Positions 10,725-54,413 of a DNA stretch of 64,000 nt are shown one piece after another. Within the stretch, counting starts at the first letter, position 1; each line of letters starts with the position of its first letter. The notes beneath the pieces are model-generated. The model was not told the DNA's origin. It ran no database searches and saw only the letters and a program-made list of their open reading frames with translations. The stretch is from the NCBI GenBank assembly GCA_051532055.1, contig JAOPTX010000007.1, positions 128,001-192,000 of the forward strand, in the 5' to 3' direction. The translations under genes were made by a program, and so were the position numbers. Origin of the DNA: Fibrobacterales bacterium (GTDB lineage: Bacteria; Fibrobacterota; Fibrobacteria; Fibrobacterales; JAOPTW01).

Positions 10725-10759
10725 AAAAAAATGCCTCGGACTACTCCGAGGCATTTTTT
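10725..10759. terminator. Bidirectional intrinsic terminator between the convergent helicase and S8 protease genes
   Basis: AAAAAAATGCCTCGGA-ctac-TCCGAGGCATTTTTT; the protease stop codon lies in the loop. Confidence 0.85.
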
Positions 10760-12417
10760 ATTTCTGCCTTAAGCCTCCAACCCTTCCCCTGAACCTCTCC
10801 ATTGGTAACAAACCACAGTAAGGTGTAGTTACTCCAAGAGTTCAACTCTGGAGGAGTCTTAGGTCCACTAAACCGAGCAATCAAATCTCCATTGGTTTTT
10901 TCTCCATTAAAAAAATAGAGCCCATCTGTTTTCGATTCGGTATCAAATTCTAAGAAGGTAAATTTAAATATTTTCCCTGGGGGAGCAATAAATTGCCATC
11001 TACAATCACTCTGCGCATTATAGGAATGCTCATTACTCCCATCTGTAATAATGGTATCAGTCATAATAGTCACAGTATTGCTACAATACAAAGCGCTCGA
11101 ATCAATAGTAGTCGTTGAATATTGAAGCGTAAAGTAATCACTCTTACTTGTTGTCGAAAGGTATCTAATATCAAATTGGTTCCCATGTATCACTAATGGC
11201 TTATCCCATTCATACAACGAAACAGAAAGCTCTTCAATTGGCTTTTTATTCTGATAACTATTAATAGTGAAGCGTATATCAGGTGATCCACTCTCTACCA
11301 TTTGTGGGTAGAGGACAATCCCCGGTACAACCCCCGGAATATCAATAGACCACTCAATCTCGGGCTGATACCCAGGGTTTTTGTGTAACACTCCTTTGCT
11401 ACTTACAAGAGAATATTTTTTATGAGGCTTAGCAACCATTATACCACACTCAACTGCATCTACAGGACTCACCACACCGGTGCCCAACTTCCCAATCAGA
11501 CTTTTATTTTGACTGTCCACACTTTGTGCACTATTTATTAAACAATTATGCTGCTCCATTCTCGTAAAAGTTGGGTGTTTCAATTTAATAAGTGCAGCCA
11601 CGGCAGCAATATATGCAGCAGCCATAGATGTTCCAGAGCGAGAGAGTACCGACGTTGTATCACTACTCCCCGCAGAAAAAATAGAATCGCCTGGTGCCGC
11701 AATATCAACATACGCACCATATGATGCATCCTTTAACTTCTTCCTTTTTTCATCTACAGCAGTCACTGCAACAACACCAGGATAGACTGCAGGATAATAT
11801 TGTTGCTCATCTGAAAAATTTGCTACTGACGCAACGAGGGTTACACCTTGCTGCTGCGCATAAAGCAGTACCTCTTTCTCTGCTTGAGTAGCTTTTGCAA
11901 CACTCCAAGCACAAAGGATAATATCAGCACCTGTTTTTACCGCATATTTTATTCCCTTGAAGCCATGCTTAATGTGAGTCTTGTCTGCATTATCCGAAAG
12001 TGCTTTCACAGGAAGAATTTTGACAACACTTTTACTGGTTTTCAACAATGCTTTATCCAAAACTTGACCTATTACACCAGCTACATGAGTCCCATGGTAC
12101 AACTGCGCTCTCTTTTGCGATGAAGGCTTTACATTATCATCCCAATCAGAAACATCCCAGCCCCAAAGGTCATCTACCGCCCCATTGCCATCATCATCTT
12201 TTCTATTGAATGGAACTTCATTCGTATTTTTCCAGATATACTCTTTTAACAAAGTATGGTTTACATTAAAGCCGTCATCTACAATTGCAATGACAATAGT
12301 ATCACTTTGTGTAACAGGAATATTGAGAGTTGGTATCTGAGCCAACCAATAAGGAATTACTTCAGCAGCCCCAATGTTGGCGCTCCAAAATAGGAATATA
12401 AAGGAAAAATATTTCAT
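10741..12417 (-). CDS. Secreted S8 (subtilisin-like) serine protease with C-terminal CUB domain
   Basis: Signal peptide; catalytic triad IAIVDDG / HGTHVAG / SGTSMAA; DDDGNGAVDD insert; CUB pattern C...Y.AQSDCRW.F.AP.G..F.F.F.EFDTE...D.L..F.G......RFSG...P.......L.F.T.....KGW. Confidence 0.9.
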   Translation of the reverse strand: MKYFSFIFLFWSANIGAAEVIPYWLAQIPTLNIPVTQSDTIVIAIVDDGFNVNHTLLKEYIWKNTNEVPFNRKDDDGNGAVDDLWGWDVSDWDDNVKPSSQKRAQLYHGTHVAGVIGQVLDKALLKTSKSVVKILPVKALSDNADKTHIKHGFKGIKYAVKTGADIILCAWSVAKATQAEKEVLLYAQQQGVTLVASVANFSDEQQYYPAVYPGVVAVTAVDEKRKKLKDASYGAYVDIAAPGDSIFSAGSSDTTSVLSRSGTSMAAAYIAAVAALIKLKHPTFTRMEQHNCLINSAQSVDSQNKSLIGKLGTGVVSPVDAVECGIMVAKPHKKYSLVSSKGVLHKNPGYQPEIEWSIDIPGVVPGIVLYPQMVESGSPDIRFTINSYQNKKPIEELSVSLYEWDKPLVIHGNQFDIRYLSTTSKSDYFTLQYSTTTIDSSALYCSNTVTIMTDTIITDGSNEHSYNAQSDCRWQFIAPPGKIFKFTFLEFDTESKTDGLYFFNGEKTNGDLIARFSGPKTPPELNSWSNYTLLWFVTNGEVQGKGWRLKAEIKNASE

Positions 12418-12428
12418 ATGACTAAATT

Positions 12429-12460
12429 AAAAAAGATCCTGTATTTCTACAGGATCTTTT
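12429..12460 (-). terminator. Intrinsic terminator/attenuator between the collagen-like gene and the protease gene
   Basis: Perfect 13-bp stem AAAAGATCCTGTA-tttc-TACAGGATCTTTT with a U-tract on the minus strand. Confidence 0.8.
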
Positions 12461-12480
12461 CAGGTTTACATTGAATTCTA

Positions 12481-13854
12481 CTATTGAGTAATCAAATTAA
12501 TATTTTCACTACCACCTTTAGCACCTAACTGCCTTCGTGTCAAGCCAGGACCACTACCAGGGTGCACCGCTACACGACCTCTAAGATCAGGAAGTGCAAA
12601 TACCGTTCTACCATCACCACCGTAGGTAGTTCCAAGAAGGGAAAATACGGCGCTATATTGAGAAATTGCCATCAATTGGCCATCACACAATGCCCAACCA
12701 CGTGGTGCAAAGTTCCCTGCAAACATTATTATTTCTGCAAGAAATGGGTCAGAGCTATTTCGAGATGGAAATGTTCCTTGTAACGCAATTATATAGTTTA
12801 CCCCAAGCCATGGTTGCATATTGTCATATGTCGATTGATAGTTTGTAGGTTTTTTAGCAATCCAGTTATCACTCTCCCAGGTAAGAACCTCACCATCTTC
12901 ACTCCCATCAACAACTGTTGTGCCACCTGTACCTGCAGGACCAATATCTCCCTGTGGACCTTGAGGTCCAGCGATTCCGCGCTCGCCTTGGTCACCTTTT
13001 GCACCAGGAAGACCATCAACACCAGCAACGCCACGGTCACCTTTTGCACCAGGAAGGCCATCTACACCACCAACACCACGGTCACCTTTTGCACCAGGAA
13101 GGCCATCAACACCAGCAACTCCACGGTCGCCTTTTGCACCAGGAAGGCCATCAACACCAGCAACTCCACGGTCACCCTTTACACCAGGAAGACCATCAAC
13201 ACCGTCAATTCCAGGGTTACCCTGATCACCTTTGTCACCAGCAGCTCCTGATTGTCCAACAGAGAAAGGCTTAAACACATCATCATCATAAATATATGAT
13301 ATAGCATCAATTGTATGATAAAATGCTTCACCACTATTTGCTATGGCAGGAAAGGCATTAAGATCACCAAGCCAATGAACCACTGATCCTTCCTCTTTAA
13401 AAACTTTCATCTCAAAAAGTGACGAACCCCATTGAGTTGCACGAGTGACACAAACAATACGAATATACTGAGCCAAACCAAACTGCTGTACTATTTCATC
13501 AGTACCCCCATTTGAGTTTGTTGTAGAATAAACCGCACTTCCCCAATTGCTCCCATCGTTCGAAAGATAAATTTCATAGCCTTGGGCAAAGGCAGATTCC
13601 CAATTTAGCTCAATCTTATCAATAGCATACGATTGCTGGAGGTCAACAGTTAACCACTCCCCATCAAGGAATTGTGAAGACCATCGTGTATTGTCAATCC
13701 CATCAAATGCCTTGCTTGCTGATAGGGCCCCTGATTCAATACTTGAAGCTGTTGCCGGCTTATTCAATGAAACAAGTGTATAGTTTTGTGCAAATGAAAG
13801 CGAAGCAGCAATAACCACCCCAACTCCCATACGTTTTATATGTGTAAATAACAT
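12481..13854 (-). CDS. Secreted F5/8 type C (discoidin) - collagen triple helix - phage tail-collar (Mdp-like) protein
   Basis: Signal peptide (SLSFA|Q); F5/8C motifs ATASS..AFDG..TRWSS..EWLTVDL..WE; 37 Gly-X-Y triplets; collar motifs FAGNFAPRGWALCDGQ...LLGTTYGGDG...LPDLRGR. Confidence 0.9.
   Translation of the reverse strand: MLFTHIKRMGVGVVIAASLSFAQNYTLVSLNKPATASSIESGALSASKAFDGIDNTRWSSQFLDGEWLTVDLQQSYAIDKIELNWESAFAQGYEIYLSNDGSNWGSAVYSTTNSNGGTDEIVQQFGLAQYIRIVCVTRATQWGSSLFEMKVFKEEGSVVHWLGDLNAFPAIANSGEAFYHTIDAISYIYDDDVFKPFSVGQSGAAGDKGDQGNPGIDGVDGLPGVKGDRGVAGVDGLPGAKGDRGVAGVDGLPGAKGDRGVGGVDGLPGAKGDRGVAGVDGLPGAKGDQGERGIAGPQGPQGDIGPAGTGGTTVVDGSEDGEVLTWESDNWIAKKPTNYQSTYDNMQPWLGVNYIIALQGTFPSRNSSDPFLAEIIMFAGNFAPRGWALCDGQLMAISQYSAVFSLLGTTYGGDGRTVFALPDLRGRVAVHPGSGPGLTRRQLGAKGGSENINLITQ
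12990..13203. repeat. Coding tandem repeat, 45-bp unit, about 4.7 copies (GDRGVAGVDGLPGAK)
   Basis: Units start at 12991, 13036, 13081, 13126 and 13171 (gtcaccttttgcaccaggaag...), with mostly synonymous differences. Confidence 0.95.
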
Positions 13855-14143
13855 TGTATCCTCCCAATGAACTCATGAGCATCTCTCAAGATTCTCTATT
13901 AAGCTGTTACTGTGATTCACAAAGATAACCCTGTTAAAAATTCACATTTGTAAACTATATGTTAACAAACGCTACCAAGAAGTATTCAATTATAACGTTA
14001 TATGAAATCTAACGAAGACCTATACTATTTCACTCTTAATTACCCAAAAAGAGCGATGAGCACCCCACCTCGAATCAATTCAACTAACCATTTCAAGTTT
14101 GGTATTTCTGAACGTTTTAACCTCTCTTTAGTATAACTATTAG

Positions 14144-14198: not shown

Positions 14199-15170
14199 TT
14201 ATTGCCCTATACGAATACCAATCTCAAAGCCCGGCCAATGGTGTACATCATCATGATCTTGCGTATATTCATCTGTCCAAGGTGCCGTAAGGGCTCCATT
14301 ACCATGAGTCCACAATCCATTATAAGTAACCCCTCCAAACAATCCGACTTTATTTAAAAGTTGCATACCGATACGAGCTTTAATTTGCCCGAGAGAGTTA
14401 TGACGCCAGTCATTTCTATCCCAGTCATCATCTTTTCGAGTTAATACGGTATGCTTATCCATGATCAAGCTCCCATGCATTTCAACTTCCGTATATACGC
14501 GCCCCATTTCCTTATGATATCCAACACCCATTCCCAATGAGTAGGGGTTCGTTTCACTATCAAAGGTATAGCCAATACTATAAGATGTGAATAGTGTTTT
14601 GCCCGATGCAAATGTCAAGCGATTCATCCCCGATTCGTCAGCGCTATAATCAACATGAAATAGCCCATTATCTGCAATAGTTAACAATGCAAATGAATAA
14701 CCATCAATATGATCAGCTATATTAAGCATACCAATCTGTCCACCCACAATAGTATCTACTACATTTACATTACCAATTTGTATCCCTTCAACATATTGTG
14801 CACTATTAATTGTTCCAAAAATCTGCCCGCCTTCAACTCGTTTAGCATAATTTGCAAAAGCAAAGAGCTGGTATCCTCTAATAGTCCCTCCAACATGGTT
14901 ATACCCCGACGTCAGTTGGAAATCCTCTAAATCGCCTAACGCAATATTTGAAACAAGTGACACCTGTGAACCTGATACATTTTCTGTAGCAACATTACTC
15001 AAAGCAGAAATTTGGGTAGACTGGTTCTTACACTCACTATAAGTATAATACCACGTTTTATCGACGCGCTTTTCGCCACAGGGTGATACTGATTCGGTAT
15101 TTGTTGCAGTTCCAGCTACAGCACATACAGCTGTAATAAGGAGTGTAGTGACTATTGGTAGTATTTTCAT
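14199..15170 (-). CDS. Exported protein with LA_2272-like beta-solenoid repeats and a beta-barrel-like C-terminus
   Basis: Signal peptide; repeats of G.Q(L/I)...N.A..V.G.QIG..N; alternating beta-strand C-terminal region ending GFEIGIRIGQ. Confidence 0.65.
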   Translation of the reverse strand: MKILPIVTTLLITAVCAVAGTATNTESVSPCGEKRVDKTWYYTYSECKNQSTQISALSNVATENVSGSQVSLVSNIALGDLEDFQLTSGYNHVGGTIRGYQLFAFANYAKRVEGGQIFGTINSAQYVEGIQIGNVNVVDTIVGGQIGMLNIADHIDGYSFALLTIADNGLFHVDYSADESGMNRLTFASGKTLFTSYSIGYTFDSETNPYSLGMGVGYHKEMGRVYTEVEMHGSLIMDKHTVLTRKDDDWDRNDWRHNSLGQIKARIGMQLLNKVGLFGGVTYNGLWTHGNGALTAPWTDEYTQDHDDVHHWPGFEIGIRIGQ

Positions 15171-16363: not shown

Positions 16364-19300
16364 ATGCTTCAACATGATAAAACCCTTCAGGGTAATGAAC
16401 TGATGTTAATACATCTGCGTAGTGATGGAAAAATTCACTGGGCTGATGAAAATTTTCTGAGATATATGTCTATTCAAGACATTGACGTTATTGGAGTACA
16501 TAAAGATGTCCTCTATCAGTCTCCCCAGATCAGTATTGCAAATATTATTATTCACACTCCCATTGATATTGATCGCCGCGTAGAAGCTGTTGATGAACAA
16601 GGTGACCTGTTTGAAGTCAAGATTACTTGGAAGAAGAGTGAAGCACACATAGTCATTGAAAATATAGACCGAAAAAAACTCATTAAGAAAGAGACGGTCT
16701 TTGGCAAATTTACCCTTATAGAAAAGATTGGACGAGGTGGCACTGCAGAGGTATGGAAAGCACGTGATGATGACTGGGGCTTAGTCGTTGCTGTTAAAAA
16801 AATGATTGCGGGAACCCATGCCAGCAAAGAGAATATCAAACGGTTTTTAAAAGAAGCCGAGCTAATGAAGCGCCTCAACCACAATAACATTTGTCACATT
16901 CATGAAGTAGGCCAACACGAAGGGGTATACTACATATCAATGGAGTATATTGATGGCATTGATCTCAATGATTTCATTCTTTCAAATACCTTCTTACAGC
17001 TTAAACAGAAATTTAAAATTGTGAAAGATGTACTCTCAGCAGTACAGCACGCTCATGATAACGACATCATTCACCGCGACCTCAAGCCTGCTAATATTAT
17101 GATGCGCAACAATGGTGAGCCGGTGGTTATGGATTTCGGCTTGGCACGAATTATCAATACCGAGCACACTATTACTCTAGATGATCAGGTTGTTGGGACT
17201 GTAGACTGGATGTCTCCTGAACAAGCTCAGGCTTCAAATGACGTCGATGAACGAAGTGATATATTTTCTGTTGGCGCCATCATGTATTATCTGATAACAG
17301 GGCAAAAATGGTTTAACAGTAGTGGCAACATTTTTCGCGATACAAAACTGATCCAGAAAAAAGAATTGGTTCCACCACGGTTACTCCAACCAACCCTCGC
17401 CAAAAGTATTGAAACAATTATTTTAAAAGCAATGGACAAAAGTCCTCGCAGGCGCTATCAATCTGCCATAAACTTTTTGGGAGATATAGTCCGTTTTGAA
17501 AAGAATCAGCGGATTACTGCCCGGAAACCAACAGTCCTTCATCGTTTACATAAAAAATACAAGCACAACCCCGTCTACTTTTGGGCTCTATTTTGTATCG
17601 CTTCCATCCTTATACTTTCATCGGTATTATTGTATGGTCAAAGACTCAAAGAACTCGCTACATGGGACCTCATCTTTTACGAAGATTTTAGTAGCTATGA
17701 CTCCCCAGCTGATGTCAATCAACACTGGATTGGCTATAGTGCTGATAGTTATACCTGGTCTAAAGGAATGATCAAAAGCTTTACCTTCACTGACTCATCA
17801 TTCTGGCACCTCGACTCAGGTGTTTTTACCAGCGACTTATCAAAGAGTAATATTTTCTGTGCAAACCTCACCTATAAAGATCGACTCCCTGGTAATATCC
17901 GCGTAGAGTGGAAGATGAAAGGTTTTGAACACAACCTCAATTATGATGCGTATATCGCTGGTGAAACACGATTTGATGGATACACCTTCCATCTCGGCGG
18001 CTGGGACAATGAGCAGTATTTTGTACTCACCAAAGGCAAAGACGCTCTCATTCTCGATTACTCAATACAAGACACCCCTCTCGAAACCAATCGAGAATAT
18101 GAGTTTGTCATGGAGAAAGAAGATAAACACATACGGCTCTATATGGATGGATCACTTATTTTTGATTATTTTGATTACAATATCTTATCGGGTGAACGTA
18201 ATCAAAGTTTTGGATTTGACAACTGCCTTAAACATACACAACAGGTGTATGATATAAAAGTGTATACCCAAGCTATTGCACAAAAAATATCTCCCATCTC
18301 TATTGGTGACGCTTTTTTTGCTAAAGAGCAGTACCAAAATGCCTATGACCAATACCATCAATTGATGAATGCTTATTCTGGTTCAAACATAGCAAAAGAG
18401 GCCCATTTCAAAAAAGCGCTCTGTCTTGCAAAACTTAAAAGAGACTCTATCGCTTATACCCTCTTTGAGACATTTGAACAAAGGCATCCTAGTCACGAGC
18501 AAGTCCCCTACTCAATTTATGAAAGAGCTCTCATCTTTCAACGAAAAGGTGAACCACAACAAGAAAAACTCCTGTACCAAGAGCTTTCAGTTCGGTTTCC
18601 AGGACACCCCTTATTAAAACCAATATTTTTTAATAAAGGTACCGCTCTCCTAAATGAGTTACATCTACTCAACACAACTAATCACGACTCGATTGTTTCA
18701 ACAATTCTTTCAAAACTAGATCAAGTTAAAATATGGGCACAGCTCTTTGATCTCGACTTTGAAAACAACCCCTTTTCTCAGCCCGTCTTTACACAACTCC
18801 TTAATCTAAAAGAGTATGACATCATCCTTAAACACTTTAACAATCCTCGCTATATACACATATACGACAAATATGCTCAACTCCTTTATAGAATGCAGAC
18901 TTACGACTCTATTAAGAGTGTCGATAATTATACCAAAAAACTTATTGCCTTATCCCACCTCAGACAACGCAACTATAAAGCTCTTAAAAAAAGTATCAGT
19001 ACCTACGCTGGGCACGATGATGTTCTCGCCACACTCTTTGGTATGAATGCCCCTCCTCAACTCTTTACTCACTTCATCGATGAACCACAATTTCAGCCAC
19101 AATATTTCTCCTATTACTACACCAGTGGCCAATCAGCTCACTTAAAAAATTTAGACTCGTTAAGTGACATTCAAACAGCCTATGCACGTACGGCTCTCAC
19201 CGAATTCGATGAAGCCCTTGCACTTCCAGAACACCCAAATGGACTTAAAAAATGGTATCACGCCATGAATACTCGGGTCCCTTTTCCCATCACGGCAACC

Positions 19301-19921
19301 ACTCCACTATTACACTATTCACTCTCTACCGCACAAGACCTTAAATGGGCTACCAATCCACAATTCAGAAACACTCTACCAAGTCTTGATCGACATAATA
19401 AGGCTGATAGTGCTCTCAACTTTGATGATTCTCATTTTATAGACACCCCACAGTATGCTTCACTCCCAAATAGCATAACCATTAGCGCATGGATCAACCC
19501 TTCAACCGTTCCGACCAATAGAACCAGCACAATATTATCTCTCCTTCTCGACAATACAGAAAGTATCACTCTCAACCTTAAAAATATTAAGAGCCACTTT
19601 CATTTTGAGGTTGTAGAGACAAAGGAAGTAGAAACGACCAACTTTAATTCATTTTGCGAATCAACCCTCAGTGCTTGGACTCATCTTACCCTTGTTATTT
19701 CAGAAGAGGATCACCACTATACGTTGTATATAAATGGCATGTTTGATTCATATATTCCAAGAGTACAATCACTCAATAGCTCATCGCTCAGCCGAGTCTA
19801 TATTGGAACCGATGCCCACTCAAAAATCCAGTTTTTCAATGGGTCAATCGATGATGTTTCAATATTTGGGAGTGCGTTAAACCCAAAAGAAGTTCAAGCC
19901 CTCTTTCACTCAGAACAATAA
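16364..19921 (+). CDS. Membrane Hanks-type Ser/Thr kinase with extracytoplasmic lectin-like, TPR-like and LamG-like domains
   Basis: GRGGTAEV, VAVK, HRDLKPAN, DFG, WMSPEQ; TM VYFWALFCIASILILSSVLLY; TPR-like helices; C-terminal TISAWI...WTHL...LYING...IG....FNGSIDDVSIF...L. Confidence 0.9.
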   Translation: MLQHDKTLQGNELMLIHLRSDGKIHWADENFLRYMSIQDIDVIGVHKDVLYQSPQISIANIIIHTPIDIDRRVEAVDEQGDLFEVKITWKKSEAHIVIENIDRKKLIKKETVFGKFTLIEKIGRGGTAEVWKARDDDWGLVVAVKKMIAGTHASKENIKRFLKEAELMKRLNHNNICHIHEVGQHEGVYYISMEYIDGIDLNDFILSNTFLQLKQKFKIVKDVLSAVQHAHDNDIIHRDLKPANIMMRNNGEPVVMDFGLARIINTEHTITLDDQVVGTVDWMSPEQAQASNDVDERSDIFSVGAIMYYLITGQKWFNSSGNIFRDTKLIQKKELVPPRLLQPTLAKSIETIILKAMDKSPRRRYQSAINFLGDIVRFEKNQRITARKPTVLHRLHKKYKHNPVYFWALFCIASILILSSVLLYGQRLKELATWDLIFYEDFSSYDSPADVNQHWIGYSADSYTWSKGMIKSFTFTDSSFWHLDSGVFTSDLSKSNIFCANLTYKDRLPGNIRVEWKMKGFEHNLNYDAYIAGETRFDGYTFHLGGWDNEQYFVLTKGKDALILDYSIQDTPLETNREYEFVMEKEDKHIRLYMDGSLIFDYFDYNILSGERNQSFGFDNCLKHTQQVYDIKVYTQAIAQKISPISIGDAFFAKEQYQNAYDQYHQLMNAYSGSNIAKEAHFKKALCLAKLKRDSIAYTLFETFEQRHPSHEQVPYSIYERALIFQRKGEPQQEKLLYQELSVRFPGHPLLKPIFFNKGTALLNELHLLNTTNHDSIVSTILSKLDQVKIWAQLFDLDFENNPFSQPVFTQLLNLKEYDIILKHFNNPRYIHIYDKYAQLLYRMQTYDSIKSVDNYTKKLIALSHLRQRNYKALKKSISTYAGHDDVLATLFGMNAPPQLFTHFIDEPQFQPQYFSYYYTSGQSAHLKNLDSLSDIQTAYARTALTEFDEALALPEHPNGLKKWYHAMNTRVPFPITATTPLLHYSLSTAQDLKWATNPQFRNTLPSLDRHNKADSALNFDDSHFIDTPQYASLPNSITISAWINPSTVPTNRTSTILSLLLDNTESITLNLKNIKSHFHFEVVETKEVETTNFNSFCESTLSAWTHLTLVISEEDHHYTLYINGMFDSYIPRVQSLNSSSLSRVYIGTDAHSKIQFFNGSIDDVSIFGSALNPKEVQALFHSEQ

Positions 19922-48221: not shown

Positions 48222-49577
48222 ATGAACGGAACAGACCCGGTACGTATTTTAGTTGTTGATGACAACACCGCTATACATGAAGATTTCAGATCAATCCTTT
48301 CTGATAGTGAAAATGATAGCACTGCTCAAAACTTAAAAAAATATGAAGATGCACTCTTTGCGAAACCAGCTGAAAAGCCCGTCATACAAACCACCTACAC
48401 CAACTACCGTATTGATCACGCCTACAATGCACAAGAGGCAATTAATATGGTTCATGTGTCTGAAAAAGAATCTGACCCTTACGCCCTTATTTTTATGGAT
48501 GTACGCATGCCCCCAGGCATGGATGGAATACAGGCGATTCAAAATATTTGGGATGACTATCCAGAGATAGAAATGGTGATATGCACTGCTCACTCTGATT
48601 ATAACTGGGATCAAATTATTGAAAAGCTTGGTTTAACCGACCATCTACTCATTTTAAAAAAACCATTTGATAGTGTTGCAGTCAAACAGTTTGCTCTCAC
48701 ACAATCCACCAAATGGAAGCTTCAAAAAAGCAACAAACTGTATACTGCCTCTCTTGAAGAAAAAGTTGTAGAGCGAACCTCTGAACTACAATTCTCCCTC
48801 GACCAACTTAAAAGCGCTCAAACCCAACTCATTCAGTCAGAAAAAATGGCATCCCTAGGAGAACTTGTTGCTGGGGTCGCCCACGAAATCAACACCCCTA
48901 TAGGTGTCGGCATTACCGCGGCATCATTCATTGATGATAACACTCATGAGCTTAAAAAACGGTACGAAGACAAAAAAATATCCAATCAGTTTATGCAAGA
49001 GTACATCAACACTGTTACCACGAGTAGTAAAATGCTCATGACAAACCTCAATCGTGCTGCAGAACTTATTGCCGGCTTTAAACAGGTTGCCGTAGATCAA
49101 ACTACTGACCTAAAACGCACTTTTAAAATTTCAGAACTCATTCACAATGTAACCTTTAGCCTAAATCCAAGACTTAAACAGGCAGGAGTTACCATAAATA
49201 TTAATTGTGACGAAGACCTTTCGTTCAATAGCTACCCTGGTTCATTTTCACAAGTGATGACCAATATGATCATGAACTCTATTATCCATGGTTTCGAAGA
49301 ACAACTCAATGGCGTTATCGATGTCACTGTAACCACAGATACCCAACTCGTAACCATTCTATATCAAGATAACGGTAGAGGAATTGGCCCTGATCAAATT
49401 AAAAAAGTATTTGATCCTTTTTATACTACTAAAAGAGGGCAAGGGGGTACTGGTCTTGGCATGCACATTATTTACAATATTATTTCTCAAAACTTTAAAG
49501 GAAACATTGTCTGTGAAAGTGAGCAAAGCTCTTACACTCGCTTTACGATAACCATCCCTTTTAGTCAACTCCAATAA
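48222..49577 (+). CDS. Cytoplasmic hybrid receiver-histidine kinase (NtrB-like kinase)
   Basis: VVDDN...FMDVRMPPGMDG...KKPF receiver; GVAHEINTP H-box; DNGRG, FDPFYTTK, GGTGLG. Confidence 0.93.
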   Translation: MNGTDPVRILVVDDNTAIHEDFRSILSDSENDSTAQNLKKYEDALFAKPAEKPVIQTTYTNYRIDHAYNAQEAINMVHVSEKESDPYALIFMDVRMPPGMDGIQAIQNIWDDYPEIEMVICTAHSDYNWDQIIEKLGLTDHLLILKKPFDSVAVKQFALTQSTKWKLQKSNKLYTASLEEKVVERTSELQFSLDQLKSAQTQLIQSEKMASLGELVAGVAHEINTPIGVGITAASFIDDNTHELKKRYEDKKISNQFMQEYINTVTTSSKMLMTNLNRAAELIAGFKQVAVDQTTDLKRTFKISELIHNVTFSLNPRLKQAGVTININCDEDLSFNSYPGSFSQVMTNMIMNSIIHGFEEQLNGVIDVTVTTDTQLVTILYQDNGRGIGPDQIKKVFDPFYTTKRGQGGTGLGMHIIYNIISQNFKGNIVCESEQSSYTRFTITIPFSQLQ

Positions 49578-49584
49578 GGCGCCT

Positions 49585-51735
49585 ATGAGTACTCAAAAAC
49601 GAATTTTAATTGTTGATGACACTCAATCTATACATGACGATTTTCGCCATACTCTCACTCGGCTCACTCATCACACTTCAGCGGCATTAGAGCTTGAAAA
49701 AGAACTCTTTGACGAACCAAGCCTTGATGAACAATTTCAAGACTTTAACTACACTATCGAAAGCGCCTATCAAGGACTAGAAGCCATTACCATGGTACAC
49801 GAAGCTGAAAAGGAGGGCAACCCTTACTGCTTGATCTTTATGGATGTACGCATGCCCCCAGGAATAGATGGTATCGAAACCATATACCGCATTTGGGAAG
49901 AGTTTCCTCATATCGAAATGGCTATTTGCTCAGCCTATTCAGACTATTCATGGACTGCAATTAAAGAACGACTGCAACAGACAGACAAACTTGTTTTCCT
50001 AAAAAAGCCATTTACCAAAGATACGATAATTCAGACGACCTATCTTTTGGCTAAAAAATGGGATACCCAGCATTCAAGTCACGATCAGATTGCCTTACTC
50101 CAGCAAGAAGTACTTGAACGAAAAAAACAGATCGCATCTATAAAAATTGAACTTGATACCATTACTCAGCATTATAAAACAACCACCTTTTTGAAAAACA
50201 ACTATATGGCTTCTGTAAGCCAGGAAATCATATCACCCCTGAATGGCATTCTAGCAGTAACCGACCTCTTACTCGATACCTCACTCGATGAAGAACAAAA
50301 GGGACTTGCCCAAAGCATTCAAAACTCGAGTCACTCGGCATATGAAAAAGTATCTAACTTACTTGAATACCAACTCCTTGACACGTCTCACAACACGAGT
50401 GAACCTGTTGAATTTAATATCCGAGCCCTGATTGAAAACATACTTGAGCTTGTGCAAGTAACCTCAGAAGACAAACAGATTACACTCACATCGTCTCTTC
50501 ATTCATCAATACCAAGAAATTGCAAAGGGGAACCGGTAAAAATCAAGCAAATGCTTATCCAGCTGTTACTGAATGCTATTGAAAGGACTGAACAAGGTCG
50601 CATTGATATCACCATTAATAGAAACTTCACACAAGACAGCATAACAACTACGCACCTTCTTTTTACAGTGAGCGATACCGGAACAGTCCCCAGCAATGAA
50701 GAGCGCGCCCAATTTGAGAGCAATGATATACCAGAAATAGGAGCGCATGGATATCGCATCTACCTCTTTAAGAAGATACTTAAAACCATTGAAGGCAATA
50801 CTCCTCCAAAACAGCAGCTCGAATCGGGAACCGCATACTCCTTCTCAATACCTATTACGCTATTAGATAATGAAAACCTTATTGCGCACTCAACTTCGAC
50901 TCAGGATACCATTCAAAATTTATCATGCTTGATTATTGGCGATAACTCAACCAACAGAAAAATCCTTTCGCTTCATCTGAAACACTGGGGCGCAAAGAGT
51001 ACTGAAGTCTCTTCTATAGAGGCTGGTCTTGAGAAAATAGCCGTACTGAGAAACAGTAGTGAAGGGTATTCCATGATTTTACTCGACTTTAAAGATCCGA
51101 GTACCGCACCCTATTTAGACTTTGCCCAACTATTACAACAACTCAACAGCCCCACTAACCCTTATAAACTCATCGCCATAATTCCTCAGGGACATAAAGG
51201 GGATCTCATCAAATTTAGAGAGGCTGGATACAGCGCATACCTCTCAAAGCCAATTAAGCAAAAACAACTTTTTAACTGCCTGATGCTCTTAAAGCTCAGC
51301 ATGTTCAATCAACTTAAATTACCCAATATTATCACTAAATATATCCTTGATGAGTATTCAATGGAGCGCTTTTCTATGCTCATTGTCGAAAGTGACATCG
51401 TTTCACAGCGTCTTCTCCTCTATATTTTTGCTGAAATGAGGATCATTTGCGATATTGCTACTACTTCTGAAGAAGCTATTGAAGCTTTACAGAAAAAACA
51501 GTATGATCTAGTGGCTTGTACTAATATTTCACCTTCAATTAGTGGGGTTAAAATATTTGAACAAACGATTCAGAGCAGGAAAAACAACCAGTGTCGATTC
51601 ATTGGTATAACATCACATGCAGAGAAACTGTGGGGAATATTTACAGAAGGAACCAAAGTGGAAGGTATTATCCAAAAACCATTTGATAAGGCAACTATTA
51701 CTTCAATGATGAAAAAGATAATGTCTCGGGAATAA
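49585..51735 (+). CDS. Receiver - degenerate histidine kinase - two further receiver(-like) domains (probable pseudokinase)
   Basis: Intact first receiver; H-box reads SVSQEIISPLNGI (no His); G2 box lost; last receiver lacks the phospho-Asp. Confidence 0.85.
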   Translation: MSTQKRILIVDDTQSIHDDFRHTLTRLTHHTSAALELEKELFDEPSLDEQFQDFNYTIESAYQGLEAITMVHEAEKEGNPYCLIFMDVRMPPGIDGIETIYRIWEEFPHIEMAICSAYSDYSWTAIKERLQQTDKLVFLKKPFTKDTIIQTTYLLAKKWDTQHSSHDQIALLQQEVLERKKQIASIKIELDTITQHYKTTTFLKNNYMASVSQEIISPLNGILAVTDLLLDTSLDEEQKGLAQSIQNSSHSAYEKVSNLLEYQLLDTSHNTSEPVEFNIRALIENILELVQVTSEDKQITLTSSLHSSIPRNCKGEPVKIKQMLIQLLLNAIERTEQGRIDITINRNFTQDSITTTHLLFTVSDTGTVPSNEERAQFESNDIPEIGAHGYRIYLFKKILKTIEGNTPPKQQLESGTAYSFSIPITLLDNENLIAHSTSTQDTIQNLSCLIIGDNSTNRKILSLHLKHWGAKSTEVSSIEAGLEKIAVLRNSSEGYSMILLDFKDPSTAPYLDFAQLLQQLNSPTNPYKLIAIIPQGHKGDLIKFREAGYSAYLSKPIKQKQLFNCLMLLKLSMFNQLKLPNIITKYILDEYSMERFSMLIVESDIVSQRLLLYIFAEMRIICDIATTSEEAIEALQKKQYDLVACTNISPSISGVKIFEQTIQSRKNNQCRFIGITSHAEKLWGIFTEGTKVEGIIQKPFDKATITSMMKKIMSRE

Positions 51736-51755
51736 ATAGGTACTATTATAACAAT

Positions 51756-53066
51756 ATGGAACGATTAACCAGTCGAATACTTGTAGTTGATGATAACGCC
51801 TCAATACATGATGATTTTAAAAACATCATTACTGAGACGAATAAGTCAAAAAATAAAAAAACCGCCCAGCTAGAAGGCGAGCTTTTTGGCATTGCATCAA
51901 CGACAAATGAAATTGTTGATACCTATGAGTACCAGATCGATGATGCCTATCAAGGTGAAGAAGCGGTTCAAATGGTTGATACTGCCGAAAAAGAGGGTAG
52001 ACCTTACTCTCTGATCTTCATGGATGTTCGAATGCCCCCAGGAATAGACGGCATCAAAGCAATACAATTAATATGGGACCAATACCCCCATATTGAAATG
52101 GTTATCTGTACCGCACACTCAGATTATAAGTGGAATCAAATAGTCGACATGTTTGGGCAAACTGACAAACTTATCTTTATGAAAAAGCCGTTTGATAGTG
52201 TTTCAGTAAAACAAATGGCTATGACCCTCTGTACTAAATGGCAACTTGCACGTACCAATGCAGAGCATGTACACAATCTCGAGGAAGCCCTTTTAGAACG
52301 TAAAAAAGCTGCACAAGAACTCAAGCTCGCCAAAGAGCGTGCTGAATCAGCCAATATTGCCAAATCAGAATTCCTTGCCAACATGAGTCATGAACTCAGA
52401 ACCCCAATGCATGGGATCCTGAGTTATTCACAATTTGGCATCAAAAAATATAATAATGAAAACAAAGAAAAAGTTCTCGACTATTTTAAAAACATCAATA
52501 GCTGTGGTAAACGGCTTATGGACCTTCTCAATGACCTTCTAGACCTCTCAAAACTTGAGGCTGGAAAAATGGACTACAATTTTGAGCAGAGTGATCTCCT
52601 CTATGAACTCCGTTTAGTCCTCTCTGAATTCCATGCTCTGATTCAAGAGAAAGGAGTGTTAATCGATGTTATTGACCCCCTCTGTTCTGTATCAGTACCG
52701 ATTGATAAAATGAAAATTAATCAGGTATTTCGAAATCTCATTTCTAATGCCATCAAATACTCATCCGAGGGGAAGACTATTCAAATAACCTTCAACGAAT
52801 CGAGCAATGACAACAAAGAACTACTCAACTGTTCCATTATCGACGAAGGGGTTGGGATTCCCAATAATGAATTAGAACGAGTCTTTGACAAATTTATACA
52901 ATCGAGCACCACAAAAGATGGCTCAGGTGGCACCGGACTTGGACTTGCCATTTGTCGTGAAATCATTTCCGCTCACCAAGGAACTATCTGGGCAGAACAC
53001 AATCCTTTAGGCCAAGGCTCACAATTTATTTTTACCGTCCCAAAAGAACAAAAGCCATCCGAATAA
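51756..53066 (+). CDS. Cytoplasmic hybrid receiver-histidine kinase
   Basis: Receiver FMDVRMPPGIDG; ANMSHELRTP; NLISNAIKY, DEGVGI, GGTGLGL. Confidence 0.95.
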   Translation: MERLTSRILVVDDNASIHDDFKNIITETNKSKNKKTAQLEGELFGIASTTNEIVDTYEYQIDDAYQGEEAVQMVDTAEKEGRPYSLIFMDVRMPPGIDGIKAIQLIWDQYPHIEMVICTAHSDYKWNQIVDMFGQTDKLIFMKKPFDSVSVKQMAMTLCTKWQLARTNAEHVHNLEEALLERKKAAQELKLAKERAESANIAKSEFLANMSHELRTPMHGILSYSQFGIKKYNNENKEKVLDYFKNINSCGKRLMDLLNDLLDLSKLEAGKMDYNFEQSDLLYELRLVLSEFHALIQEKGVLIDVIDPLCSVSVPIDKMKINQVFRNLISNAIKYSSEGKTIQITFNESSNDNKELLNCSIIDEGVGIPNNELERVFDKFIQSSTTKDGSGGTGLGLAICREIISAHQGTIWAEHNPLGQGSQFIFTVPKEQKPSE

Positions 53067-53135
53067 TATCAATTCTCTATTGCCCCCACCCCAGAACTAT
53101 GATATACTCAAGCATACTTCCCACCTGAGAATGGT

Positions 53136-54413
53136 ATGAGAAAAACACGCATCCTCTATGTTGATGACGAGCAACAGAATTGCATTGTTTTTAAAGCAAC
53201 GTTTAAAAATAAATACATAATAACCACCTGTACCTCTGCAAAAGAGGCGTTAGAGCTTATTAAAACTGAAACCTATCCTCTTATTATTTCAGACTATAAA
53301 ATGCCCGACATTAACGGTGTCGATTTCTTTCAACAATCACTCAATTACTCCCCCACCTCAATTCGCGTATTAGTAACAGCCTACAGTGATATTGATACTA
53401 TTGTCAGTGCAGTCAACAGAGGTTATATCTATCAGTTTATTTCTAAACCCTGGAACGACCAGGAACTGGGTGTCGTTATTGAAAATGGACTTAACAAGTA
53501 CTACTTGGAACAAGAAAACAAAGAACTCTTTAATCAAATTTCTCTTTATTCTAAAGACCTTGAATCACTACTAAAAAATAAAATACGGGATCTTAAAGAA
53601 AGTAATACTCTTCTCAACAAAGAAGTCACCGCCCACAAGGAGACCATCGACAAACTCGAAGGCGCGATTGAAAAGTCAGAAGAGGCCAATGAGGTGAAAA
53701 GCTCTTTTTTAGCAAATATGAGTCACGAACTGCGCACCCCAATGCATGGAATCCTCAGCTTCGCACAGTTGGGTATCTCTAAAGCAGAAACGGCACCTAT
53801 TTCAAAGCTGGTAGCCTACTTCCAGCATATTAATGATAGTGGGCAACGCCTACTCACTCTATTAAACAATATTCTCGACTTGGCAAAACTCGAATCTAAA
53901 TCCATTGATTATTATTTTACAGAAAACAATGTACTTCGAGAAGTCGACGCGTCTATACATGAGTTTATGGTACTACTCGATTCAAATAACATTGAGATCA
54001 AGCTTATGGACAATCTTGATGACTCCCGTTTTACTTTTGATCAAATCCGTGTGGGACAAGTACTGAGAAATCTTATTCTCAATGCAATAAAATTTTCACC
54101 AGCCAATAGCACTATTACACTATCACTTAACGAAACGACCACTACAGTAGATTCTCACCCAATCCCCGCAGTACAATGCACACTTCTCGATCAAGGTGTC
54201 GGCATACCTGATGGAGAACTCGAGAATGTATTTGATAAATTTATTCAAAGCAGTAAAACAAACAATGGAGCTGGAGGCACGGGTCTTGGTCTCTCGATTT
54301 GTAAAGAGATAATAGAAGCTCATGGTGGTACTATTTGGGCTCAAAATAGAGACGATCAAGCGGGAGCTGCCTTTACTTTTATTCTCCCACGAAGCCAAGA
54401 GATTAAACCCTAA
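53136..54413 (+). CDS. Cytoplasmic hybrid receiver-histidine kinase
   Basis: YVDDE..IISDYKMP..SKPW receiver; ANMSHELRTP; NAIKF, DQGVGI, GGTGLGL. Confidence 0.95.
   Translation: MRKTRILYVDDEQQNCIVFKATFKNKYIITTCTSAKEALELIKTETYPLIISDYKMPDINGVDFFQQSLNYSPTSIRVLVTAYSDIDTIVSAVNRGYIYQFISKPWNDQELGVVIENGLNKYYLEQENKELFNQISLYSKDLESLLKNKIRDLKESNTLLNKEVTAHKETIDKLEGAIEKSEEANEVKSSFLANMSHELRTPMHGILSFAQLGISKAETAPISKLVAYFQHINDSGQRLLTLLNNILDLAKLESKSIDYYFTENNVLREVDASIHEFMVLLDSNNIEIKLMDNLDDSRFTFDQIRVGQVLRNLILNAIKFSPANSTITLSLNETTTTVDSHPIPAVQCTLLDQGVGIPDGELENVFDKFIQSSKTNNGAGGTGLGLSICKEIIEAHGGTIWAQNRDDQAGAAFTFILPRSQEIKP

Follow-up and report, generated by a model that had tools for sequence, protein, structure and literature searches.

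What ties a gene for a secreted, collagen-bearing fibre to a gene for a secreted subtilase with CUB domains in a bacterium? The two lie side by side in a stretch of 64,000 nucleotides from a Fibrobacterales bacterium (GenBank assembly GCA_051532055.1, contig JAOPTX010000007.1, positions 128,001 to 192,000 of the forward strand), which is called the window below. A preliminary description of the window had seen in the pair a convergent counterpart of the animal collectins and their MASP proteases. Its account of the parts was borne out: the genes are co-oriented on the minus strand with a spacer of 63 bp, both products begin with a probable signal peptide (judged only by inspection and from the hydrophobicity of the N-terminus), and Pfam recognised F5/8C (residues 34-146, E 3.5e-21), Collagen and Collar (residues 374-428, E 2.1e-28) in the fibre and Peptidase_S8 (residues 39-303, E 1.5e-34) and CUB (residues 445-549, E 1.1e-13) in the protease. 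The answer that we favour, with a probability of about 0.45, is that the protease is dedicated to the trimeric end of the fibre, where it would dock and cleave the fibre. Positions of all features are given in Table 1.

A permuted collar gene lies upstream of the protease gene in distant bacteria

A gene for a fibre with a circularly permuted collar was found directly upstream, on the same strand, in all nine protease loci with visible upstream DNA, namely the window, Cocleimonas flava (L011), L012, L013, L014 (where the protease ends at the contig end ahead of its CUB domains), G275, G282, G290 and G353. Eight of the nine paired proteases fell on at least five separate branches of a quick tree, and in the control none of 77 other S8 loci had a collar. 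The preliminary description had proposed a search for S8-CUB genes adjoining collagen or collar genes; when it was carried out, the collar was present in 9/9 partners and collagen in 5/9 (38, 27+29, 41, 51 and 14 triplets, 200 in all), and the F5/8C domain was confined to the window fibre. What is constant in the partner is the permuted collar; collagen and lectin are not.

The rule was also examined in reverse. Among 296 genomes of the host's own phylum the protease was found in 6, a collar match in 17 and a single permuted collar in 4, and all four of the latter lay directly upstream of the protease gene. In the Gammaproteobacteria the protease was present in 2 of 401 genomes and a collar in 18 of the 400 scored, and both single permuted collars were again directly upstream of the protease. 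No single permuted collar was detected in the other 29 collar-bearing genomes of both samples; gammaproteobacterial collar matches lacking a locus were classed from their query range and from internal stops, and the 16 other collar-bearing Gammaproteobacteria include the unpublished G437 and G335, without which the number is 14 and the conclusion stands.

Adjacency and order are thus kept despite exchange of the N-terminal module and stalk and divergence of the protease to 32-45% identity. The only CUB domain and the only Collar domain of the host genome (5.2 Mb, 94% complete) are those of this pair, and the pairing is therefore not due to chance. The protease family comprised at least 26 full-length clusters among the 120 matches listed, the named members among them being Reichenbachiella, other Bacteroidota and Arenicella, and about 20 further S8-bearing representatives were among the best 150 of a library clustered at 50%. 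A metagenome scan gave at least three family loci among the 80 listed, a contig scan with a single protein query gave one, and the scan of the own phylum also returned six weak matches to CUB only (E 1e-6 to 4e-4).

The distribution is patchy. The protease was not found in 40 host relatives, among them the congener G001 (91% complete), and no further copy was seen in the order of G353 (1/5) or of C. flava (1/107). The nearest relative of the protease comes from another phylum (Reichenbachiella; quick tree, support 100), and the module looks mobile. Three scans of viral contigs with the protease or its alignments gave no relative, and plasmids gave no match to its C-terminal half. The pair is conserved as a unit among distant bacteria, and a functional partnership of the two products is very probable.

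The fibre tip is a circularly permuted collar

The predicted structure of fibre residues 314-457 (predicted local distance difference test score, pLDDT, 87.9) was superposed on T4 gp12 (PDB 1ocy) with Z 8.0 and a root-mean-square deviation (rmsd) of 2.0 over 83 aligned residues. The collar body matches chain residues 15-84 of 1ocy, and the N-terminal strand of the tip aligns with residues 183-195 of 198, a match below significance when taken alone. The tip is thus a PF07484 collar in sequence and in fold. The canonical order is collar, needle with an HxH motif, and a C-terminal return strand; in the window fibre the return strand comes first and the chain stops before the needle. The collar is circularly permuted relative to gp12 and MdpB.

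Collars were classed by hidden Markov models for the return strand and the collar body, and of the 120 proteins listed in the protein search for the fibre, 99 were single permuted collars. The Trp motif was present in 94 of these, a C-terminal HxH was kept in 90, and only 13 had at least 10 collagen triplets. The HxH pair of gp12 coordinates Zn at the axis of the trimer (PMC3004832); the motif is missing from the window fibre and from five of the other eight protease partners. The tip is highly conserved, with 42-64% identity over 77 rows, and the Trp motif ended in Lys in 53 of 78 aligned rows, with a variable linker following.

A route to the permutation by gene fusion is visible, because canonical collar genes abut, with a single stop separating the last strand of one gene from the next collar, and because fused collar repeats exist in the permuted register: of 120 listed (119 of them triple), 101 have the return strand at the start and 109 lack it at the end. 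The permutation probably arose by such fusion of tandem collar genes. The host genome has one collar, and the three-gene collar cassettes with tandem paralogues were found in other genomes. None of 388 collar matches in phage records covered 80% of the permuted tip, the Bacteroidota plasmid collar matches examined (2 of 72 records) were ordinary tandem collar genes, and the ESM Atlas gave collar clusters of the sub-0.9 class only.

Two further kinds of collar protein were seen during these searches. One is a large family of single-chain triple collar repeats (P0122-P0241; L153:940-2544), many with PEP-CTERM (PF07589) and mostly in the permuted register, which amount to a covalent version of the three-gene cassette. 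The other is a pair of canonical collar genes with apparent signal peptides adjoining a PEP-CTERM-like protein (L145:575-1851).

The protease is a subtilase without propeptide and with two CUB domains

The S8 domain showed a strong fold match (Z 35.6, rmsd 2.2, 282 aligned residues), and the catalytic triad reported earlier is intact, together with the oxyanion Asn. In an alignment of 56 rows, which includes fragments and three rows of doubtful membership, the catalytic residues were kept in 49 (Asp), 50 (His), 53 (Asn) and 54 (Ser) rows, all misses except one being gaps. Only 46 residues, signal peptide included, precede the catalytic Asp, and at most 87 do so in 47 of 49 rows; the family thus has no propeptide, and in this it departs from classical S8A subtilisins, which carry one at the N-terminus. 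Pfam likewise gave no match to an I9 propeptide, EGF or CCP module in the protease. The closest NCBIfam likenesses of the protease were processing proteases (mycosin, PatA/PatG, QhpE), all far below cut-off.

The C-terminal domain is a CUB by sequence (PF00431 above cut-off) and by fold, with Z 17-18 and rmsd 1.4-1.7 against the CUBs of TSG-6 (Z 18.0, rmsd 1.5), PCPE-1 (Z 17.2, rmsd 1.4) and neuropilin. The Ca-binding CUB signature consists of a Tyr and three acidic residues (PMC6372009). As had been noted from the window, Tyr, Glu and Asp are kept and the last acid is Asn; across the 56 rows Y466 and D498 were invariant, E494 was Glu in 42, and position 539 was Asp in 30 and Asn in 18.

The stretch between the S8 domain and this CUB was found to be a second, degenerate CUB. 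Alignment of the cut profiles by hhalign gave 98.1% and E 1.4e-13 against the C-terminal CUB, with 0.7% for the control, and the stretch forms a beta sandwich in the protease model (pLDDT 84.2). The tandem CUBs of cubilin align across residues 333-558 (rmsd 15.3). BLASTP gave no alignment between the two domains, and the result rows of a fold search with the whole protease were dominated by S8. As a separate observation, the top two CUB matches in the 50% library (P0242 and P0243) are proteins of 1,904-2,179 residues with 11-15 CUB-like stretches.

A dedicated protease may dock on the fibre tip and cleave the fibre

Because the Trp motif with the permuted collar and the S8-CUB-CUB chain are the fixed parts of the pair, any conserved contact must lie between these two. 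We propose a mobile two-gene module consisting of a secreted homotrimeric fibre and a dedicated tip protease. In the fibre, an N-terminal module and a stalk that can be exchanged (F5/8C and collagen in this copy) would be joined to the fixed tip; the permutation would put the stalk at the needle position of gp12 and MdpB and leave the collar as a C-terminal trimer cap. The propeptide-less subtilase would have tandem CUBs dedicated to the tip, binding it or its base, with Lys334 as the candidate docking residue, and its S8 domain would cut the fibre near the variable linker ahead of the return strand. The cut may mature the fibre or free the collar trimer, as BMP-1 and PCPE-1 do with the procollagen C-propeptide.

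The docking and the trimer have precedents. The CUB1-CUB2 pair of PCPE-1 is described as gripping stalk lysines of the procollagen C-propeptide trimer beside the BMP-1 site (PMC6372009), and in EPclA a C-terminal phage-fibre domain trimerises a bacterial collagen (PMC3368898). The window fibre would presumably form a trimer likewise. A complex prediction with three tips and the protease scored 0.42 against 0.00 for the best control, with agreement of the runs in at least 71% of contacts and a partner pLDDT of at least 75; the result weakly supports association and gives no interface. In calibration, 116 of 157 solved complexes and 2 of 215 mismatches attained the mark, among them 18 of the 157 and both mismatches at scores of 0.60 or below; a four-chain job with custom alignments is outside the calibration range. 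The gene arrangement is also consistent with the proposal. All five loci with a spacer (the window and four others) have a terminator-like hairpin between the genes, which fits a protease made in a smaller, catalytic amount than the fibre; in the remaining four loci the genes abut or overlap. Taken together, we consider direct binding of the protease to the fibre slightly better than an even bet and cleavage slightly worse than one. A fuller version, a convergent bacterial form of procollagen maturation in which the collar is a trimerising propeptide and the CUB subtilase recognises the base lysine and cleaves the collar off, in a two-gene unit that crosses phyla, is tentative and rather unlikely to hold in every part.

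Several observations weigh against the proposal. A conserved cleavage motif was not found in the linker. The HxH kept at the C-terminus of most permuted collars points to a completed tip closed by metal and not to a propeptide that is discarded. The four partners without collagen indicate that the collar is not only an aid to collagen folding, and in these four loci a terminator would hardly fit, as the genes touch or overlap. The ligand site of the CUB is only partly canonical, and the Lys-stacking Tyr of PCPE-1 occurs in only 1 of the 56 rows. In G280 and G286 (91% and 87% complete) the protease gene starts at a contig end, and the assemblies yielded no permuted collar. Finally, the 99 permuted-collar proteins come without gene context; the reverse rule covers the own phylum and the Gammaproteobacteria, and the named ones among the 99 are Bacteroidota.

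Alternative explanations of the pairing

The alternative that survives best, although we think it unlikely, is that the fibre stays uncut. The collar tip would then be a docking post on which the CUBs hold the protease at the end of a surface fibre, with proteolysis aimed at outside substrates such as particles, prey or host. It would draw on the same pairing data and on the same complex score, which cannot tell docking from cleavage because no interface is given. The kept HxH, the abutting genes at four loci and the F5/8C domain, which is like chitosan-binding modules and would tether the fibre to polysaccharide, all agree with it. However, a broad degradative subtilisin without a propeptide would be unusual, and this family lacks one in nearly all rows; the hairpins at five loci suggest less protease than fibre, and the host genome encodes six other S8 proteins.

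Less probable again is a link without contact, either through a common outside target or through co-transfer as a cassette, in which the two proteins do not bind. The patchy spread, with a nearest relative in Reichenbachiella and no copy found in the congener, would be expected here, and the complex score is within the range of both known false passes. Yet order and adjacency have outlasted module swaps and the divergence of the protease, and neutral hitch-hiking is not expected to preserve adjacency for so long.

It is more doubtful still that the collar trimer is an effector or signal freed by the protease, or a decoy for phage receptors, with the fibre as its carrier. The tip is the sole fixed part of the fibre and derives from a phage receptor-binding fibre, which speaks for such a role, but the receptor-binding head of gp12 is the very part missing from it, and no immunity, transporter or receptor gene recurred beside the pair in the nine loci read.

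The stalk and the N-terminal module are optional parts

The F5/8C-linker-collagen chassis of the window fibre recurs in four other proteins of the host genome with other tips, and the lectin is thus part of the host's fibre platform. The F5/8C domain resembles the chitosan-binding CBM32 modules DD1 and DD2 of Paenibacillus (structures 2rv9/4zxe, E 4.5e-29, a likeness in sequence). The ligands of CBM32 are diverse (PMC5651945), and chitosan as a ligand is only a lead.

The docking of a CUB on collagen lysines, as MASP docks on mannose-binding lectin (MBL), had been suggested by the window copy with its 38 triplets (37 when the last is uncounted), its six Lys, all in Lys-Gly-Asp, its lectin-like domain and a CUB with most of the Ca-site residues, and collagen is indeed found in five partners. 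Collectins carry their lectin domain at the C-terminus and MASPs are S1 proteases of the order CUB-EGF-CUB-CCP-CCP, whereas here the lectin is N-terminal and dispensable and Pfam gives S8 and CUB only. The likeness to MBL, ficolins and C1q with MASP, C1r and C1s is confined to a collagen stalk, a lectin-like domain and a CUB-bearing serine protease, and the Lys at the X position that MASP binding needs (PMC2856262) is absent from all 38 triplets here and from all 200 of the five collagen partners, two of which contain no triplet with Lys. A charge pattern with Lys at Y and Asp at X is common among phage and bacterial collagens (PMC3368898). Given this absence, the four partners without collagen, the F5/8C domain in the window fibre only, and four paralogous F5/8C-collagen proteins of the host without a CUB gene of their own, MASP-like docking is very improbable. 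What stands of the earlier idea is a conserved fibre and CUB protease unit, and its suggestion of a fibre matured by a CUB protease comes near our best reading; the collectin/MASP mechanism and the glycan-binding lectin as a part of the system do not stand.

The four paralogues (G000 C21:39091-41175, C30:32950-34713, C40:47746-50139 and C110:27469-29313) differ in their C-terminal tips and form with the window fibre a swap-tip fibre family, beside which the host has four more collagen proteins without F5/8C. In the protein at C40 two collagen runs flank a repeat region, and there is a cysteine-rich C-terminal segment, which we take to resemble the animal thrombospondin type 1 repeat. The F5/8C type of the fibre is present in about 27 open reading frames of the host genome, and giant proteins of 1,858-4,058 residues carry several F5/8C each (G000 C49:73440-85616, C31:1-5576, C125:1-5668 and C42:31914-39497), three of the four also with an S8 domain. 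Ahead of several of the permuted-collar fibres, a small secreted protein whose N-terminal motif is rich in Gly was observed (L106:9282-9776, L108:3897-4811, L082:2953-4047); it is possibly an anchoring or export partner.

Setting and expression of the locus

No phage gene was recognised by Pfam among the 34 window open reading frames scanned, and composition gave no sign of a foreign island, with a guanine-cytosine fraction of 0.41-0.42 at the pair against 0.36-0.44 across the window. Neither protein has an outer-membrane export signal recognised by Pfam. Motifs in paralogues of the host genome look like those of the Fibrobacter major paralogous domain, which is in keeping with Fibrobacterota. 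The DNA of the locus was matched in a marine metagenome run, and RNA contigs of the same sample covered most of the fibre gene (12512-13069 and 13144-13904), together with two short stretches within the protease gene. The RNA library may contain DNA, contig depth cannot rank the genes, and coverage gaps, such as 11231-12114 in the protease gene, prove nothing.

Upstream of the pair lies a co-oriented gene for a secreted protein of 323 residues with weak LA_2272/VC2662 repeat matches (14199-15170); it is covered by an RNA contig, is followed by its own terminator-like hairpin and was not seen adjoining the pair at other loci. Elsewhere the window encodes a Ser/Thr kinase of 1,185 residues with TPR-like and C-terminal LamG domains (16364-19921) and four tandem response regulator-histidine kinase hybrids just ahead of cobalamin synthesis and uptake genes (48222-54413).

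Table 1. Features of the fibre and protease genes, in positions of the window
Feature	Position	Strand	Remarks
Secreted fibre gene, 457 residues	12481-13854	-	signal peptide, F5/8C (CBM32-like), linker block, collagen, Trp motif, permuted collar
Probable signal peptide of fibre, residues 1-22	13789-13854	-	hydrophobic window and judgement by eye
F5/8C domain, lineage-specific N-terminal module	13390-13788	-	Pfam; nearest solved: chitosan-binding CBM32 of Paenibacillus chitosanase/glucanase
Short linker block	13258-13389	-	common to four other F5/8C-collagen proteins of the host genome, E 1e-11 to 1e-5
38 uninterrupted Gly-X-Y triplets from residue 200, optional stalk	12916-13257	-	6 Lys at Y, 0 at X
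Conserved Trp motif at tip base, residues 321-334	12853-12894	-	last residue Lys334, candidate CUB docking lysine
Return strand NMQP...FPSR, residues 344-365, ahead of collar	12760-12825	-	C-terminal in T4 gp12 and canonical MdpB
Collar body, residues 370-457	12481-12747	-	stops before needle, without HxH metal motif; Pfam; 1ocy Z 8.0
Intergenic terminator-like hairpin, 14-bp stem and U run	12428-12461	-	between fibre and protease genes; z -5.0, 0/200 shuffles; absent from the list of a separate terminator scan
Secreted protease gene, 558 residues	10741-12417	-	signal peptide, S8 (without propeptide), degenerate CUB, CUB
S8 catalytic domain	11443-12303	-	D47/H108/S264, oxyanion N200; Pfam, fold match, alignment
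First CUB-like domain, residues 333-437	11107-11421	-	degenerate, cysteine-free; hhalign to C-terminal CUB
C-terminal CUB, residues 445-556	10750-11085	-	Y466, E494, D498, N539; disulphide pair C445/C472
Terminator-like hairpin at the end of the unit	10726-10759	-	opposite convergent DEAD-box helicase gene

Comparison with known systems

Each part of the pair comes from a known family, and fibres served by a processing subtilase of their own are of a known kind; what sets this pair apart is the permutation of the collar, the tandem CUBs of the protease and the strictness with which the two are coupled across phyla. Subtilases encoded beside a presumed substrate include mycosins, PatA/PatG, QhpE and LanP, and SphB1 is the processing subtilase for the Bordetella FHA; the first three are the best NCBIfam likenesses of the window protease, with scores far below cut-off. 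We know of no processing subtilase with tandem CUBs or with a collar-tipped substrate.

BMP-1 is an astacin and the procollagen cap is a COLFI domain, whereas here a subtilase is found with a phage collar as cap, collagen is optional and the Lys-stacking Tyr is absent. What the two systems have in common is a secreted collagen capped at the C-terminus by a globular trimer domain and a protease activity tied to tandem Ca-site CUBs (PDB 6FZV/6FZW; PMC6372009), PCPE-1 being among the best CUB matches in sequence and fold. We regard this likeness as an analogy, not as homology of the systems, with binding and cleavage in the bacterial pair putative.

With T4 gp12 (PF07484; PDB 1OCY) and the MdpB-like collars (PMC3004832, PMC2938197) the tip shares the collar fold, the return-strand motif and, in most relatives, HxH; it differs in its permuted order, the deleted needle and head, the signal peptide and the single gene in place of a triplet. 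Non-phage collar and collagen-like proteins have been described in operons with dioxygenases and sulfotransferases (PMC2938197), whereas here no GNAT, sulfotransferase or dioxygenase gene adjoins and a protease takes their place. In the E. coli prophage proteins EPclA-D the collagen, of the same Lys-at-Y, Asp-at-X charge pattern, is likewise capped by a C-terminal phage-fibre domain, PfC, which trimerises and renucleates the helix; this is another domain (the word collar is absent from the main text of PMC3368898), and the EPcl are virion proteins in prophages, unlike the window fibre, around which no phage gene was recognised among the open reading frames scanned.

No published description of the pair was found in the open-licence literature searched, in agreement with the preliminary description, which knew of none in bacteria; figure 4 and the supplement of PMC2938197 could list related neighbourhoods.

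Significance of the pair

The pairing points to a specific candidate ligand for bacterial CUB domains, and it offers a testable role for a branch of the non-phage tail-collar (MdpB-like) proteins, which are unexplained. The fibre tip is a clear natural circular permutation of which plausible intermediates, the abutting tandem collar genes and the fused triple repeats, are extant. If cleavage is confirmed, the module would be a bacterial system convergent with the procollagen processing of animals and would provide a natural trimerise-then-cleave tag for recombinant collagens.

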